Shown in pieces: positions 12,745-21,574 of a stretch of DNA of 64,000 bases. The translations under genes and the position numbers were made by a program. Position 1 is the first letter of the stretch. Each line of letters starts with the position of its first letter. This DNA is from Shigella phage vB_SsoM_113. The notes under the pieces are model-generated. The model was not told the origin of the DNA. It did no database searches and saw only the letters and a list, made by a program, of their open reading frames with translations. The DNA lies in sequence record LR746311, one strand, 5' to 3'.

Positions 12745-12749
12745 GTTGA

Positions 12750-12778
12750 GGACTCCTTCGGGAGTCCTTTTTTATTTT
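12750..12778 (+). terminator. rho-independent terminator
   Basis: GGACTCC-TTCG-GGAGTCC (12750-12767) followed by TTTTTTATTTT. Confidence 0.8.
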
Positions 12779-12854: not shown

Positions 12855-13187
12855 ATGAAAACGATTAATCTGAACGCTGCAGTTAAAACTAAATGCTTCA
12901 ATGGTAAATATGATGAAACTATGTGGTTCTTAATGGCAGTTGAAGGTGATATTATTGAAGTAGAAACAACAGAAGGTATGGGAACAGATTTCACCTTTAC
13001 AATTCAAGTTCATAATTTCTTTACTGGTTGGATTTATGAATTGAATACAGTAATCGTTGGAAAAATTGAACAAAATGAATTGGGTGAATGGTATTATGTT
13101 ACAGCTCGCCAACGTGCCGAACGCTTAATTGAGAAGATGAAAAAAGTTGGTAAACTTGACATGCAGCACTGGAAAGTAGTAAAATAA
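12855..13187 (+). CDS. hypothetical protein
   Basis: 110-aa ORF; ATG 12855 after AAGGAG. Confidence 0.55.
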   Translation: MKTINLNAAVKTKCFNGKYDETMWFLMAVEGDIIEVETTEGMGTDFTFTIQVHNFFTGWIYELNTVIVGKIEQNELGEWYYVTARQRAERLIEKMKKVGKLDMQHWKVVK

Positions 13188-13953: not shown

Positions 13954-14169
13954 ATGTTTAAGAAATTAATCCAGAAATTACTGGGCACGGAAATGGTTGA
14001 AGTTACTTATCGTGTGACTGATGTCTCTCCGCTCACTGAAGACCATTTAGAGCCATATATTATGACAATTAAAATGCTTAAATATGATGGCGGATTATCT
14101 GTTGAAGACCGTTTACCAAGTTATGGTCATTGGGCTGATATTGAAATTATAAGTATTGAAAATGTCTGA
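13954..14169 (+). CDS. hypothetical protein
   Basis: 71-aa ORF. Confidence 0.5.
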   Translation: MFKKLIQKLLGTEMVEVTYRVTDVSPLTEDHLEPYIMTIKMLKYDGGLSVEDRLPSYGHWADIEIISIENV

Positions 14170-14620
14170 GCTAGAGATAAGAAGCAATTTTAAATGGCCA
14201 TCATGCGCATTAAGTAATTTTGCCCAATGGCCTTTCGTTATGGATGGTATTCAATTTGGAGGTCTAGAAGGATTCCTCCAAGGGTGTAAGGTGAAAAATG
14301 TTGAACAACAACGTCGTATATTTGGGTTATCCGGGCTTGCCGCCCAACAGGCTGGAAGGTCTTATGCTAGAGCTCAGGACCGTGGCACGTTGTTCTGGCT
14401 TGGAGTTCCGTTTTCAAGATACTCCCCGGCGTGGAAAGAATTATACACAAATGCATATTTTGAAGCAGCGTTCCAAAACAAGGGCTTTCGCGATGCATTA
14501 CAAGCCTCGAAAGGAAAAGTTTTGAAGCACAGCATGGCTAGTGGTCTAACAAAAGATGATACAATACTAACCGAAGCTGAATTTATTGATGTGTTAAACC
14601 TATTAAGAGACTCTCTATGA
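14162..14620 (+). CDS. NADAR/YbiA-like (DUF1768) protein, putative ADP-ribose processing enzyme (30.3-like)
   Basis: ATG 14162 (track start 14156 is TTG); motif LSNFAQWPFVMDGIQF resembles E. coli YbiA FSNFAAWPIKVDG. Confidence 0.6.
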   Translation: MSELEIRSNFKWPSCALSNFAQWPFVMDGIQFGGLEGFLQGCKVKNVEQQRRIFGLSGLAAQQAGRSYARAQDRGTLFWLGVPFSRYSPAWKELYTNAYFEAAFQNKGFRDALQASKGKVLKHSMASGLTKDDTILTEAEFIDVLNLLRDSL

Positions 14621-15456
14621 AGCCTACTATTTTAACTGATATTGATGGAGTGTGTTTAAGCTGGCAATCAGGTCTTCCTTATTTTGCTCAGAAATATAAT
14701 CTTCCGTTAGAACATATTTTAAAAATGATCCAAGATGAGAAATTTATTTCTCCAGGTAAACTCTTTAATTGTGATGAAGAACTTGGTGTCAAGCTAATTG
14801 AAAAATACAATCGATCAGATTTTATTCGTTACTTGTCTCCATATAAAGATGCCTTGTGCGTAATTAACAAACTAAAAGAAGATTATAATTTTGTAGCTGT
14901 TACAGCGCTGGGTGATTCTATTGACGCTCTGTTGAATCGTCAATTTAATTTGAATGCTCTTTTTCCTGGTGCCTTCTCAGAAGTAATGATGTGTGGTCAT
15001 GATTCTTCAAAAGAAGAGTTGTTCAAAAAGGCAAAAGAGAAATATAACGTAATTTGTTATATTGACGATCTTGCTCACCACTGCGACCACGCGAGTGAAA
15101 TATTAAATGTTCCGGTTTATTGGATGGCTCGAGGAGAGCGTGACAATATTCCAAAAACTGCGCAGCGAGTTTATACATGGAATGATGTAGAAAATAAGTT
15201 TTTTTCGCCGAAGGAAAATAAAGAAAGTTTTGATAGTGAAAAAGCTATAAAAGATTTAATTGAGAAGATGGTTAAAAACGATTCTTTTCCTTGGAACACT
15301 ACCTGGAAAACGCCTGGATTTAATCCTTATAATCATCTATATCATCCATATCAGACACATCCGTTTCAGACATGGAACTACATTAAACCTGGTGGCATAG
15401 AGTATTTGTATAATAGACCTACTAGCGGTGATAATATTTTCCAAGGAGCATTCTAA
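14617..15456 (+). CDS. HAD-superfamily phosphatase/nucleotidase-like protein (30.2-like)
   Basis: 279 aa; N-terminal LTDIDGV (DxDG HAD motif I). Confidence 0.6.
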   Translation: MKPTILTDIDGVCLSWQSGLPYFAQKYNLPLEHILKMIQDEKFISPGKLFNCDEELGVKLIEKYNRSDFIRYLSPYKDALCVINKLKEDYNFVAVTALGDSIDALLNRQFNLNALFPGAFSEVMMCGHDSSKEELFKKAKEKYNVICYIDDLAHHCDHASEILNVPVYWMARGERDNIPKTAQRVYTWNDVENKFFSPKENKESFDSEKAIKDLIEKMVKNDSFPWNTTWKTPGFNPYNHLYHPYQTHPFQTWNYIKPGGIEYLYNRPTSGDNIFQGAF

Positions 15457-15725
15457 TGTTTGTTGTTCACACTATTTATGAAAATGAAGGTAATACTACA
15501 CGTGATTACGGTCACGTAAATCAATTTTTTAGATGTAATCCAGAATTCCGAGCTCAAAAAGACGAACGAATTTTTAAAAAATGTGTAGAGCAAGGTTTCA
15601 TTTACGTTAAGCACTGGATGCAAGGAAATAAAGTTAGAACTACATATCATAGGTCTTTGCCTGAGCTTAATGATGAATTGATTTATAATAGAGCTGTAAA
15701 CCAAACCTTGAAGGATGAGCAATGA
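15456..15725 (+). CDS. hypothetical protein (30.1-like)
   Basis: 89-aa ORF. Confidence 0.5.
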   Translation: MFVVHTIYENEGNTTRDYGHVNQFFRCNPEFRAQKDERIFKKCVEQGFIYVKHWMQGNKVRTTYHRSLPELNDELIYNRAVNQTLKDEQ

Positions 15726-17182
15726 TTCTTAAAATTCTGAATGAAATAGCATCTATTGGATCAACTAAGCAGAAGCAAGCAATTCTTGAAAAGAATAAAG
15801 ATAATGAATTGCTTAAACGAGTATATCGTCTGACTTATTCTCGTGGGTTACAGTATTATATCAAGAAATGGCCTAAACCTGGTATTGCTACCCAGAGTTT
15901 TGGAATGCTGACTATTACCGATATGCTTGACTTCATTGAATTCACGTTAGCTACTCGGAAATTGACTGGAAATGCTGCAATTGAGGAATTAACTGGATAT
16001 ATCACTGATGGTAAAAAGGATGATGTTGAAGTTTTGCGTCGAGTGATGATGCGAGATCTTGAATGCGGTGCTTCAGTATCTATTGCAAATAAAGTTTGGC
16101 CAGGTTTAATTCCTGAACAACCTCAAATGTTGGCAAGTTCTTATGATGAAAAAGGCATTAGTAAGAATATCAAATTTCCAGCCTTTGCACAGTTAAAAGC
16201 AGATGGAGCTCGGTGTTTTGCTGAAGTCCGAGGCGATGAATTAGATGATGTTCGTCTTTTATCACGAGCTGGTAATGAATATCTAGGATTAGATCTTCTT
16301 AAGGAAGAGTTAATCAAAATGACCGCTGAAGCTCGCCAGATTCATCCAGAAGGCGTGTTAATTGATGGCGAATTGGTATACCATGAGCAAGTTGAAAAAG
16401 AGCCAGAAGGCCTAGATTTTCTTTTTGATGCTCCTGAAATCAGTAAAGCTAAAGAGTTTTCCGAAGTAGCTGAATCACGTACTGCTTCTAATGGAATTGC
16501 CAATAAATCTTTAAAGGGAACTATTTCAGAAAAAGAAGCTCAATGTATGAAGTTTCAGGTCTGGGATTATGTCCCGTTAGTAGAAATATACGGTCTTCCA
16601 GCATTTCGTTTGAAGTATGATGTACGTTTTTCTAAACTAGAACAAATGACATCAGGATATGATAAAGTAATTTTAATTGAAAACCAGATAGTAAATAACC
16701 TAGATGAAGCTAAGGTAATTTATAAAAAGTATATTGACCAAGGTCTTGAAGGTATTATTCTCAAAAATATCGATGGATTATGGGAAAATTCTCGTTCAAA
16801 AAATCTCTATAAATTTAAAGAAGTAATTGATGTTGATTTAAAAATTGTAGGAATTTATCCTCACCGTAAAGACCCTACTAAAGCAGGTGGATTTATTCTT
16901 GAATCAGAGTGTGGAAAAATTAAAGTAAATGCTGGGTCAGGCTTAAAAGATAAAGCCGGTGTAAAATCGCATGAACTTGACCGTACTCGCATTATGGAAA
17001 ACCAAAATTATTATATTGGAAAAATTCTAGAGTGCGAATGCAATGGTTGGTTAAAATCTGATGGCCGCACTGATTACGTTAAATTATTTCTTCCGATTGC
17101 GATTCGTTTACGTGAAGATAAAACTAAAGCTAATACATTCGAGGATGTATTTGGTGATTTTCATGAGGTAACTGGTCTATGA
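15722..17182 (+). CDS. 30: ATP-dependent DNA ligase
   Basis: 486 aa; KADGAR adenylylation motif; recognised as T4 DNA ligase. Confidence 0.96.
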   Translation: MILKILNEIASIGSTKQKQAILEKNKDNELLKRVYRLTYSRGLQYYIKKWPKPGIATQSFGMLTITDMLDFIEFTLATRKLTGNAAIEELTGYITDGKKDDVEVLRRVMMRDLECGASVSIANKVWPGLIPEQPQMLASSYDEKGISKNIKFPAFAQLKADGARCFAEVRGDELDDVRLLSRAGNEYLGLDLLKEELIKMTAEARQIHPEGVLIDGELVYHEQVEKEPEGLDFLFDAPEISKAKEFSEVAESRTASNGIANKSLKGTISEKEAQCMKFQVWDYVPLVEIYGLPAFRLKYDVRFSKLEQMTSGYDKVILIENQIVNNLDEAKVIYKKYIDQGLEGIILKNIDGLWENSRSKNLYKFKEVIDVDLKIVGIYPHRKDPTKAGGFILESECGKIKVNAGSGLKDKAGVKSHELDRTRIMENQNYYIGKILECECNGWLKSDGRTDYVKLFLPIAIRLREDKTKANTFEDVFGDFHEVTGL

Positions 17183-17396: not shown

Positions 17397-17419
17397 GAAT
17401 AAACACTAGAGAGGATATG

Positions 17420-19513
17420 ATGGAACTCATTACAGAATTATTTGACGAAGATACTACTCTTCCGATTACAAACTTAAATCCAAAGAAGAAAATACCGCAA
17501 ATTTTTTCAGTTCATGTTGATGACGCAATTGAACAACCAGGTTTTCGTTTATGTACCTATACATCTGGAGGTGATACTAATCGCGATTTAAAAATGGGCG
17601 ATAAAATGATGCATATTGTTCCTTTTACATTAACTGCTAAAGGTTCAATTGCTAAATTAAAAGGTCTCGGTCCAAGCCCAATTAATTACATCAATTCAGT
17701 TTTTACTGTTGCGATGCAGACGATGCGTCAGTATAAAATTGATGCATGTATGCTCCGTATTCTTAAGTCTAAAACTGCTGGTCAAGCTCGTCAAATTCAA
17801 CTTATTGCTGATAGACTTATCCGTAGTCGTTCAGGTGGCAGATACGTCCTTCTTAAGGAACTCTGGGATTATGATAAAAAGTATGCATATATTCTTATAC
17901 ATCGCAAAAATGTATCATTAGAAGACATTCCAGGAGTTCCAGAAATTAGTACCGAGCTCTTTACTAAAGTTGAATCGAAGGTCGGTGATGTTTATATCAA
18001 TAAAGATACTGGAGCTCAAGTAACTAAAAATGAGGCAATTGCTGCATCTATTGCGCAAGAAAATGATAAACGTTCTGACCAAGCGGTAATCGTTAAAGTT
18101 AAAATTTCCCGTAGAGCAATTGCACAAAGTCAGTCATTGGAATCTTCTAGATTTGAAAGTGAATTATTCCAGAAGTATGAATCTACCGCAGCTAATTTCA
18201 ATAAACCTGCTACAGCTCCTTTAATTCCCGAAGCAGAAGAAATGAAGCTTGGAATTAATTCATTAGCTTCTAAAACTAAGGCAGCAAAAATTATTGCTGA
18301 AGGAACTGCAGATGAACTTCATTATGACTATAAATTCTTTTCAAAAAGTGAGGTTAATGAAGTTTCTGAAAAAATTAAAGATGTAATTCTTAATGCGATT
18401 AAAAATGAACCAACTACTTCAATAAAATGTTTAGAGAAATACGCAGCAGCTGTTAATCAATTATTTGAAGAATATAAAGATAACTGGCTTGATAAACATA
18501 ATAAAACTCGTAAAGGACAAACAGATGAAGTCTGGGAAGAAATAACTAAAAATTCCTGGAACGCAGCAAAAACTAAATTCCTCAAACGAATGATTTATAG
18601 CTTTTCCGGAATTGGTGCAGGTCCAATGATTGATATTACTATTGCCCGTGATGGTTCTAAATATACTCCATCACAAAAGCGCGGCATTAGAGAGTATTGT
18701 GGTTCAGGATATACTGACATCAATAATCTTCTTTTGGGTCGTTACAATCCAGAACGATATGATGTAATGAGTGAAAAAGAAATTGAATCTGCTATAAATA
18801 ACTTAGATTCAGCTTTTGAAAACGGTGACCGTATACCAGAAGGCATTACAGTTTATCGTGCTCAAAGCATGACTGCTCCTATATACGAAGCATTAGTTAA
18901 AAATAAAGTATTCTATTTCAGAAATTTTGTATCTACTTCTTTAACTCCTATCATTTTTGGACGTTTTGGAATTACACATGCTGGTATTGGTCTTTTAGAA
19001 CCAGAAGCTCGTAATGAATTGACAGTTGATAAAAATGAAGAAGGAATAACTATTAATCCAAACGAAATAAGAGCATATAAAGAAAATCCTGAATACGTTA
19101 AAGTTCAAATAGGATGGGCAATTGATGGAGCTCATAAAGTTAATGTTGTATATCCAGGAAGTCTCGGAATAGCAACAGAAGCTGAAGTTATTCTACCACG
19201 CGGATTGATGGTCAAAGTTAATAAAATAACTGATGCTTCTAATAATGACGGAACAACATCTAATAATACAAAACTCATTCAAGCTGAAGTTATGACTACG
19301 GAAGAACTCACCGAATCAGTAATTTATGACGGTGATCGTCTAATGGAAACTGGTGAAGTAGTTGCAATGACAGGTGATATTGAAATAGAAGACAGAGTTG
19401 ATTTTGCATCATTTGTTTCATCAAATGTTAAACAAAAAGTAGAATCATCTCTTGGAATTATTGCGTCTTGCATAGATATTGCAAACATGCCTTACAAGTT
19501 CGTTCAAGGATAA
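17420..19513 (+). CDS. alt: Alt-family ADP-ribosyltransferase (positional alt)
   Basis: 697 aa from ATG 17420 (MELITELF...); C-terminal R/S/E ART elements (YRAQ ... FVSTSL ... EAEVILPRG). Confidence 0.88.
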   Translation: MELITELFDEDTTLPITNLNPKKKIPQIFSVHVDDAIEQPGFRLCTYTSGGDTNRDLKMGDKMMHIVPFTLTAKGSIAKLKGLGPSPINYINSVFTVAMQTMRQYKIDACMLRILKSKTAGQARQIQLIADRLIRSRSGGRYVLLKELWDYDKKYAYILIHRKNVSLEDIPGVPEISTELFTKVESKVGDVYINKDTGAQVTKNEAIAASIAQENDKRSDQAVIVKVKISRRAIAQSQSLESSRFESELFQKYESTAANFNKPATAPLIPEAEEMKLGINSLASKTKAAKIIAEGTADELHYDYKFFSKSEVNEVSEKIKDVILNAIKNEPTTSIKCLEKYAAAVNQLFEEYKDNWLDKHNKTRKGQTDEVWEEITKNSWNAAKTKFLKRMIYSFSGIGAGPMIDITIARDGSKYTPSQKRGIREYCGSGYTDINNLLLGRYNPERYDVMSEKEIESAINNLDSAFENGDRIPEGITVYRAQSMTAPIYEALVKNKVFYFRNFVSTSLTPIIFGRFGITHAGIGLLEPEARNELTVDKNEEGITINPNEIRAYKENPEYVKVQIGWAIDGAHKVNVVYPGSLGIATEAEVILPRGLMVKVNKITDASNNDGTTSNNTKLIQAEVMTTEELTESVIYDGDRLMETGEVVAMTGDIEIEDRVDFASFVSSNVKQKVESSLGIIASCIDIANMPYKFVQG

Positions 19514-19516
19514 ATC

Positions 19517-21574
19517 ATGGAACTTATTACAGAATTATTTGACGGCGCTTCGGCGCCGGTTGTTAACTTAAATCCTAAGCATAAAATACCTCAAATTTTT
19601 GCTATTCAAGCCGGTGAAGAAAGCGTGCTTCCTGGATTTAGATTTTGTACATACACCTCTGGTGGTGATACAAATAAAAACGTTAAGCCAGGCGATAAAA
19701 TGATGCATATCGTAATGATAGGTGTCAATGAGAAACTATCATTAGTTAAACTTAAAAACTTGGGTGGAAATCCAATTGGTGTCATTAATGCCGTTTTTGA
19801 TACTGCTCTTCAAACAATGAAACAGTATAAAATTGACGCATGCCTATTCCGCGTACTAAAGAGTAAAACAAATGGCGCAGCTCGTCAAATGCAAGTTATT
19901 GCTGACCGTTTAGTACGTACTAAAGGAGCAGGTCGATATGTTCTTTTAAAAGAAATCTGGGATTATGATAAAAAGTATGCATATATTATGGTTTACCGTA
20001 AAAATGCCAATTTAGAAGACATTCCAGGTGTACCTCCTATTTCAACTGAGTTATTCACAAAAGTTGAATCAAAGGTTGGTGATGTTTATGTAGATGTTAA
20101 AACAGGTAATGCTGTTCCTAAAGCCGTTGCTGTGGCTGCTTCTATTGCTTTAGAAAATGATAAGCGCACGGATCAAGCTGTTATTCAGAAAACTAAAATT
20201 AGCCGTCGATTAGCAGCACAAGCTCAATATTCTACTGTCGATGCTTCACTTCAGGGTGATAGCTTCGCTGCCAAGAAATATCAAGAGTTTGAATCTAAAG
20301 TTCCGGTATATAAAGCAGAAGGACCAATGAACTCTGGTGTTATTCAGATTGGTTCCAACTTCAGCAAAGGAGCTATCGGTGGTATGAGAAGTGCTTCTCG
20401 TTTTAAATCTAACGATTATGAACTAGAAAGCTTCCGAAATCATATTGCATTGGCCCATGCACGTTTACGTGATCCGTCTATCAGACTGCAGAGCGATATA
20501 ACATATCAAGGTTCTCAAGAATATTTAAAGAATAAAGAATTTTTTGATTATAAAACCGATAAAATTTTGAGCGATCTCGCTGACATTAATATTTCTAATA
20601 GCTTTGATGTTATTAAGAAAATTGTCAATGATTTAGTTAAAGGTTCTAAAGCCGCACCAGACGAAAAGGTAGCTATTATTCAATTTGTCATGAATAGCAT
20701 TTATAAATTGATTAATGAATCTGCTGCTCAGGCATATGAATACGCAAGCACCGAAGTAACTCCAAAAGGATTAACTCAGTCTGAGTCTGATGTAATTGAA
20801 GATTATTGTGCAGATTCATATGTTGAAATGAACTCGTTCCTCTTGGGTAAACCAGATTCTACCCGTGAAGAATACATGGAACGAGCTATTAAACACATCG
20901 AGACGCTGGATTCTGCATTCGCCAAAGGATCAGTTCTTCCTCCAGGAACTACGCTTTATCGTGGGCAAGAAGTTACTTTTAAAACTTTACGTCATAATAT
21001 TGAAAATAAAATGTTCTATTTTAAGAACTTCGTATCAACATCGCTTAAACCAAATATCTTCGGTGAGCATGGTAAAAACTATATGGCTCTAGATGATTCA
21101 GGTGCAGTATTTTCTGGTGAAGGAGAAGGTTCTGTTGATGCTGAAGATTTAATGCATATGGGTAGTCATTCTGCATATGCTAATGAAGATGCTGAAGCTA
21201 GCGTAGGTATGGTAATTAAAGGGGCTGAGCGAATCAAAGTTATCGTTCCAGGTCATTTATCAGGATTTCCATCAGAAGCTGAAGTTATTCTACCACGTGG
21301 AATTTTGTTAAAGATTAATAAAGTAAGCACGTACATGATGAAAGAAACTGCTTATAACAAGTATCTAATCGAAGGCACAATCGTTCCTCCTTCTGAACAA
21401 TTAGAAGAATCAGTATATGATGGCGATCATCTAATGGAAACTGGTGAAGTTCGTCCAATGGCTAGGTTTAATCAATTCCTTGTAGAAGAATCAAAAGAAG
21501 AGGAAAACGAAGTTTCTCAAATCTTGGCTTCTTTGGTTAACATCAATGGAATGTCTAAAAAGTTCAAGATGTAG
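19517..21574 (+). CDS. second Alt-family ADP-ribosyltransferase (tandem paralogue)
   Basis: 685 aa (MELITELFDG...); conserved N-terminal region and C-terminal YRGQ ... FVSTSL ... EAEVILPRG; middle region diverged. Confidence 0.85.
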   Translation: MELITELFDGASAPVVNLNPKHKIPQIFAIQAGEESVLPGFRFCTYTSGGDTNKNVKPGDKMMHIVMIGVNEKLSLVKLKNLGGNPIGVINAVFDTALQTMKQYKIDACLFRVLKSKTNGAARQMQVIADRLVRTKGAGRYVLLKEIWDYDKKYAYIMVYRKNANLEDIPGVPPISTELFTKVESKVGDVYVDVKTGNAVPKAVAVAASIALENDKRTDQAVIQKTKISRRLAAQAQYSTVDASLQGDSFAAKKYQEFESKVPVYKAEGPMNSGVIQIGSNFSKGAIGGMRSASRFKSNDYELESFRNHIALAHARLRDPSIRLQSDITYQGSQEYLKNKEFFDYKTDKILSDLADINISNSFDVIKKIVNDLVKGSKAAPDEKVAIIQFVMNSIYKLINESAAQAYEYASTEVTPKGLTQSESDVIEDYCADSYVEMNSFLLGKPDSTREEYMERAIKHIETLDSAFAKGSVLPPGTTLYRGQEVTFKTLRHNIENKMFYFKNFVSTSLKPNIFGEHGKNYMALDDSGAVFSGEGEGSVDAEDLMHMGSHSAYANEDAEASVGMVIKGAERIKVIVPGHLSGFPSEAEVILPRGILLKINKVSTYMMKETAYNKYLIEGTIVPPSEQLEESVYDGDHLMETGEVRPMARFNQFLVEESKEEENEVSQILASLVNINGMSKKFKM

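Follow-up and report, generated by a model that had tools for sequence, protein, structure and literature searches.

The question raised by this locus is whether phage genes that write and erase ADP-ribose marks have been kept together for a common purpose, or lie close to each other through inherited gene order. The window analysed here is a stretch of 64,000 nt from Shigella phage vB_SsoM_113 (LR746311). A sequence-only reading of it had pointed to a NADAR-like open reading frame, a HAD phosphatase-like one directly after it and two Alt-type ADP-ribosyltransferase genes further downstream, and had suggested that this arrangement would fit an anti-defence role. We consider it highly probable that the first gene product (gp30.3) is AdfN, that the second (gp30.2) is a HAD phosphatase of the DNA ligase neighbourhood, and that the proximity of alt reflects inherited gene order. 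The anti-DarT hypothesis was right, and it was already known, since T4 gp30.3 has been published as AdfN (PMC11825919). The main point, erasure by a phage NADAR of the ADP-ribose marks set on DNA by DarT1, is established biology, to which the window adds one more intact allele.

The window belongs to a Tequatrovirus, a T4-like phage, and was read against the T4 map. At the DNA level, the 1.9-kb stretch around genes 30.3 and 30.2 is 96-97% identical to hundreds of Tequatrovirus genomes. The order of genes along the window is rIII, 30.9, 30.8, 30.7, 30.6, 30.4, 30.3, 30.2, 30.1, 30 (ligase), alt.1, alt, a second alt-like gene, alt.-3 and gene 54; this is the order found in phage ime09 and, when read on the opposite strand, in T4. 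From gene 30.4 to gene 30, a T4-type run of early genes, the coding sequences overlap at every junction (ATGA for 30.3/30.2, one shared base for 30.2/30.1 and ATGA again for 30.1/30). The start of gene 30.3 is the ATG at 14162, which is the start used in T4, and not the upstream TTG at 14156. All that the sequence-only reading had described lies at the positions it gave. The features that matter here are the following:

13954..14169 (+): gene 30.4, 71 aa (phrog_2042, a family of 'unknown function'); ends 8 nt into adfN
14162..14620 (+): gene 30.3 = adfN, 152 aa, full length; NADAR-family DNA (guanine) ADP-ribosylglycohydrolase with E36, K43 and the phage-type H123; PF08010, E 1.3e-69
14298..14525 (+): internal out-of-frame ORF of 75 aa, the '30.3 prime' (30.3') of the T4 annotation; doubtful as a gene
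14617..15456 (+): gene 30.2, 279 aa; residues 1-195 (about 14617..15201) form a HAD phosphatase domain with a helical C1 cap, residues 196-279 a poorly conserved tail
15456..15725 (+): gene 30.1, DUF3045, 89 aa (PF11243, E 1.6e-63); lies between 30.2 and the ligase gene and overlaps both
15722..17182 (+): gene 30, ATP-dependent DNA ligase (PF01068, E 2.6e-32); conserved downstream partner of 30.2
17417..19513 (+): alt, Alt ADP-ribosyltransferase, 698 aa (PF03496, E 1.5e-37; ime09 and T4 annotation)
19517..21574 (+): second full-length Alt paralogue, 685 aa (PF03496, E 3.1e-20), directly after alt

The product of gene 30.3 is identical to T4 gp30.3 at 149 of 152 positions (98%), has the same length, retains an intact C-terminal helix and is encoded at the same place, between 30.4 and 30.2. 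The three substitutions (K11R, F104I and M125I, relative to T4) do not affect catalytic residues. The protein matches the Pfam family PF08010 ('Phage_30_3') well above the cutoff. When searched alone against the general NADAR family, PF08719, it gives no match at E <= 1, so that its direct match comes from the family-specific model. A family alignment and profile were built from 74 homologues drawn from a large protein collection: all 74 match PF08010, 30 of them also match PF08719 (best E 1.5e-7), and several carry the label 'YbiA (DUF1768 family)' from JGI. Compared with E. coli YbiA (PDB 2b3w), the 74-member profile gives E 0.008, with 'LSNFapheFvldGvecasmEGFLqslK' aligned to 'FSNFAAWPIKVDGKTWPTSEHYFQAQK'. 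This alignment spans the motif from which the YbiA/NADAR signature had been proposed and continues through the E-x6-K motif, so that E36 and K43 fall on the YbiA segment 'EHYFQAQK'. Both residues, as well as H123, are invariant in the 74 homologues. E36 and K43 contact ADP-ribose and were both mutated in the published work (PMC11825919), and a histidine at the third catalytic position is described as a hallmark of phage gp30.3-type NADARs (PMC11543638).

The structural comparison gave the same answer. The AF2 model of gp30.3 is confident (pLDDT 94, pTM 0.89), with H123 located at strand E120-122, and a Foldseek search of the PDB returned, at a probability of at least 0.98, three entries only: YbiA 2b3w (E 2.5e-5, TM 0.69), the Phytophthora enzyme PnNADAR with bound ADP-ribose (8bau) and the DarT1-associated (DarG1-type) NADAR of Geobacter lovleyi (8bat). 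Single-sequence searches of the PDB with gp30.3 and gp30.2 returned noise only, searches of NCBIfam and PADLOC gave no match, and PHROGs gave families of 'unknown function' together with weak matches of gp30.2 (see below). Four independent lines (profile, Pfam, predicted structure and invariant residues) establish that gp30.3 is a NADAR, which bears out the assignment made from the signature; the matches obtained for 30.3, 30.2 and the Alt genes are not due to chance.

What such a protein does in infection is documented for T4. Resistance of T-even phages to DarTG1 was mapped to gene 30.3, the product of which was renamed AdfN (anti-DarT factor NADAR) and found to be both necessary and sufficient to defeat this defence (Johannesman et al., Nat Commun 2025, PMC11825919). 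In that study, deletion of adfN in T4 or T2 abolished plaquing on DarTG1 hosts, a phenotype specific to these hosts; ectopic AdfN-T4 rescued RB69, the own allele of which is frameshifted and lacks the last helix; and purified AdfN took ADP-ribose off DarT1-modified DNA, the E36A and K43A substitutions impairing function (PMC11825919). T4 gp30.3 hydrolyses guanosine-ADPr in vitro and leaves thymidine-ADPr intact (Toxins 2024, PMC11125620), as do all the NADARs tested (PMC11543638, PMC11125620), and the structural mechanism of the family was described by Schuller et al. 2023 (PMC11543638). The action of a phage NADAR against DarT1 marks had been predicted in 2012-2022 and was demonstrated by biochemistry in 2023-2024 and by genetics in 2025. 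Since gene 30.3 is 459 nt long in the window, as against the 414 nt (137 aa) annotated for the inactive RB69 allele, it was classed as an intact allele of the active type. By orthology (98% identity), gp30.3 would almost certainly work as AdfN does in T4, removing DarT1 marks from guanines of the phage DNA; the eraser role suggested earlier is experimentally proven for the T4 protein (PMC11825919, PMC11125620) and is extended to the window by this sequence similarity.

The mechanism, demonstrated experimentally for T4 AdfN and extended to the window by orthology, runs as follows. DarTG1 is a host toxin-antitoxin system of which the toxin, DarT1, once the system is triggered, ADP-ribosylates guanines of the phage DNA and so blocks replication. 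AdfN is a stand-alone N-glycosidase of NADAR fold, which cleaves the bond between guanine and ADP-ribose by means of E36, K43 and the phage-specific H123; removal of the mark restores the template and allows the phage to replicate. The phage protein shares the YbiA/NADAR fold and the Glu...Lys catalytic pair with the DarG1 or DarT1-associated NADAR antitoxins (BC4488 family; G. lovleyi 8bat) and with E. coli YbiA (2b3w), and hydrolysis of guanine-ADP-ribose is common to DarG1-type NADARs, YbiA and T4 gp30.3 (PMC11543638, PMC11125620). The third catalytic residue differs, being His in the phage protein, Asp in the DarG1 type and Glu in the YbiA type. Unlike DarG1, the phage protein has neither an N-terminal extension nor a partner toxin gene and, as found with the T4 protein, does not neutralise DarT1 in uninfected cells, which it leaves without protection (PMC11125620). 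AdfN-T4 is active in vitro and during T-even infection, whereas it is inactive in uninfected E. coli and weak for T5 and Bas25; having excluded DNA modification, the authors proposed that AdfN needs a further T-even protein in vivo (PMC11825919).

The gene that follows adfN encodes a protein 96% identical to T4 gp30.2. Searched alone, gp30.2 has no direct Pfam match at E <= 1, NT5C (PF06941) included, and none in NCBIfam. An alignment of 47 homologues nevertheless reveals the four HAD motifs: in motif I, which corresponds to the LTDIDGV segment singled out in the sequence-only reading, D8-x-D10 is invariant; T96 is conserved in at least 90% of sequences; K132 is invariant; and D150-D151 are again conserved in at least 90%. 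A DxD motif I marks a phosphatase rather than a dehalogenase. Within the set of homologues, 13 of 47 match PF00702, 9 match NT5C (weakly, best E 1.2e-4) and 6 match HAD_2. The predicted structure is confident for residues 1-195, where helices inserted behind the first strand make up a C1 cap; residues 227-279 are predicted to be disordered (pLDDT < 50). When the model was compared with the PDB using Foldseek, the best 50 of 106 matches (E <= 0.001) were all of HAD fold, with cytosolic 5'(3')-deoxyribonucleotidase (cdN) coming first. We conclude that gp30.2 is, at the superfamily level, a HAD phosphatase, with a genuine fold, four motifs and a helical cap, as had been surmised from the motif. 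Judging from motifs and modelled fold, it is quite probably an active Mg-dependent phosphatase, in which D8 would serve as nucleophile and D10 as acid/base.

The 47-member profile matches mouse cytosolic 5'(3')-deoxyribonucleotidase (2jao) weakly (E 0.058), with D8 at the position of the cdN nucleophile, and weakly suggests that the 5'(3')-deoxyribonucleotidases are the nearest group. Identity to the cdN/mdN enzymes (NT5C; PDB 2jao, 2i7d and 1mh9) and to the deoxyribonucleotidase-like protein of S. epidermidis (3bwv) is only 16-22%, and gp30.2 differs from cdN/mdN in having an extra tail of roughly 85 residues, rich in Trp, Pro and Tyr, which is variable among gp30.2 homologues and missing in many of them; the lack of a direct NT5C match for the window protein also sets it apart from that family. 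In PHROGs, gp30.2 weakly matches polynucleotide kinase (E 0.002) and phosphoheptose isomerase; these matches fit a generic HAD core and are uninformative as to substrate. Some homologues have been named automatically 'FMN phosphatase YigB' or '5'(3')-deoxyribonucleotidase', and a literature search for the function or biochemistry of gp30.2 yielded nothing relevant. HADs with a C1 cap usually act on small molecules. As a guess, slightly more apt to be wrong than right, the substrate could be a (deoxy)nucleoside monophosphate, and gp30.2 an enzyme of the DNA ligase and nucleotide-metabolism neighbourhood. The tail (residues 196-279; 15202..15456) is also rich in Asn; the homologues in which it is missing are roughly 200 aa long, and a subset of the long ones has, near the end, a short motif resembling G-(T)-G-I-E-Y-L-x-x-(Q/R)-P-T.

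Whether these genes belong together was addressed by scoring the neighbours at 80 AdfN-type and 78 gp30.2-type loci from IMG/VR; 66 of the former, with less than 60% identity, made up the distant AdfN set. At 72 of the 78 gp30.2 loci a DNA ligase gene follows within 2.5 kb, and an Alt-like gene usually comes after it. The adjacency of gp30.2 and ligase extends through the T4-like phages to relatives as distant as about 40% identity (loci L082-L158), with DUF3045 (30.1) lying between them in the closer relatives only. In 37 of the 78 loci the gene directly before gp30.2 is that of AdfN. The zero-gap coupling of 30.3 with 30.2 is limited to close relatives, the gap at other loci ranging from 6 to 1252 nt, and in seven genomes the two genes are more than 50 kb apart. 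Within 8 kb of the 66 distant AdfN genes, gp30.2 was found at 8 loci, ligase at 9 and an Alt-like gene at 2. Clustering of same-strand neighbours around the 80 AdfN loci detected no partner conserved in distant phages, and no other family was common to more than 10 of the 66. In T4-like phages, Alt, ligase and gp30.2 remain grouped with or without AdfN. Among cultured T4-like phages, the two genes (30.3 and 30.2) occur in 1510 and 1438 records, respectively, with near-identical host-genus counts; these similar numbers reflect the fact that both are widespread in Straboviridae rather than a specific pairing.

It appears, then, that the HAD gene 30.2 is a gene of the ligase neighbourhood and that AdfN is a stand-alone gene of variable context. 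We know of no explanation for the conserved pairing of the HAD gene with ligase. Both that conservation (a bona fide HAD phosphatase, the conserved neighbour of which is DNA ligase and not AdfN) and the absence of any conserved neighbour of AdfN-type NADARs in distant phages are absent from the AdfN papers. The ATGA overlap between 30.3 and 30.2, which are also neighbours at roughly every second locus, may nonetheless allow for a functional tie.

These data bear directly on the suggestion that the location of the NADAR gene near the Alt or HAD genes is functionally meaningful, the part of the sequence-only reading that was not supported. Two Alt-type genes do lie downstream, at 2.8 kb where about 3 kb had been stated, in the same orientation as adfN, and Iyer et al. 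2022 had previously pointed out that NADARs of T4-like phages are co-expressed early with ADP-ribosyltransferases. One could imagine that AdfN reverses the phage's own Alt ADP-ribosylation and that this is why the genes have remained close to each other. However, Alt is a mono-ADP-ribosyltransferase of proteins (RNA polymerase) according to the T4 annotation, whereas AdfN erases from DNA the marks of the host's DarT1; the restriction of the tested NADARs to guanosine-ADPr in DNA and that of the deletion phenotype to DarTG1 hosts (see above) point the same way. So does gene order, given that Alt follows ligase irrespective of AdfN and is almost never seen near a distant adfN. This reading is extremely improbable: the closeness of adfN and alt is a matter of synteny and does not define a writer-eraser pair. 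A different link, between the NADAR and the HAD protein, would be a small-molecule pathway in which the former cleaves an N-ribosyl phosphate metabolite (similar to a riboflavin intermediate or derived from ADPr) and the latter dephosphorylates the product. The C1 cap and the automatic names of the gp30.2 homologues agree with such a scheme, as do the N-glycosidase activity of YbiA-family NADARs on riboflavin intermediates and the preference expressed by Iyer et al. 2022 for soluble ADPr derivatives as substrates of phage NADARs. Against it, de-ADP-ribosylation of DNA has been directly shown to be the activity needed against DarTG1 (PMC11825919, PMC11125620), 30.3 and 30.2 do not form a conserved pair, and the names are best-hit labels, not tests; we regard it as very improbable.

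A further alternative concerns the additional T-even protein that AdfN is proposed to need (PMC11825919). If gp30.2 were this factor, 30.3 and 30.2 would constitute a translationally coupled, two-gene counter-defence module, in which gp30.2 stabilises or localises AdfN or completes its reaction. The overlap of the two genes and their adjacency at 37 of 78 gp30.2 loci are in its favour, and 30.2 is intact in RB69, a phage that gives ectopic AdfN-T4 full activity; the similar frequency of both genes in cultured T4-like phages could be added, but co-occurrence at the genome level is explained by common Straboviridae ancestry. Moreover, gp30.2 tracks ligase (72/78) and not AdfN: it is missing within 4-8 kb of 58 of the 66 distant AdfN-type genes, and the two genes are far apart in the seven genomes mentioned above. 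General HAD biology would also make a C1-capped protein an enzyme of small molecules, and some 100 further T-even genes are as much candidates as gp30.2. That gp30.2 is the T-even factor of AdfN or, alternatively, a phosphatase that goes with ligase and has a novel part in processing DNA ends or nucleotides is improbable, and we think that it is not a dedicated partner of AdfN. The neighbourhood results slightly narrow the search for the factor needed by AdfN, for which gp30.2 is a cheap, if weak, candidate.

Several other features of the region deserve mention. The frame of 30.3' (14298..14525) is open in Tequatrovirus and in a group with 86% identity. Its status as a gene is doubtful: its ATG start is replaced in many relatives, the peptide changes freely, an internal stop is present in one relative (L012) and distant homologues have the frame closed. 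Probably, 30.3' is not maintained as a gene. A strong terminator-like hairpin (9 bp followed by a T-run) is located at 12748..12769 (+), after the 30.9-like ORF, and a sigma-70-like promoter match (11/12; TTGACA-18-TAAAAT) at 13156..13185 (+), just upstream of 30.7; these two elements could bound the transcription unit that contains adfN. A scan of the region for promoters and terminators gave counts that were not enriched relative to shuffled sequences (39 vs 36 and 6 vs 6, respectively). Because the matches are at shuffle level, no operon boundaries were drawn.

The T4 gene 30.5 is absent from the window, where 30.6 (up to 13949) is directly followed by 30.4 (from 13954); ime09 and RB69 are alike in this respect. 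Tequatroviruses that hardly differ elsewhere also seem to have one or the other of two divergent versions of gp30.4, since the window protein is 96% identical to that of ime09 and about 50% identical to those of loci L002-L004. Further downstream, the second Alt paralogue shares about 41% identity with alt in related contigs. At its site T4 keeps only two short remnants, alt.-1 and alt.-2, which according to the T4 annotation represent an old duplication of the initial part of alt.
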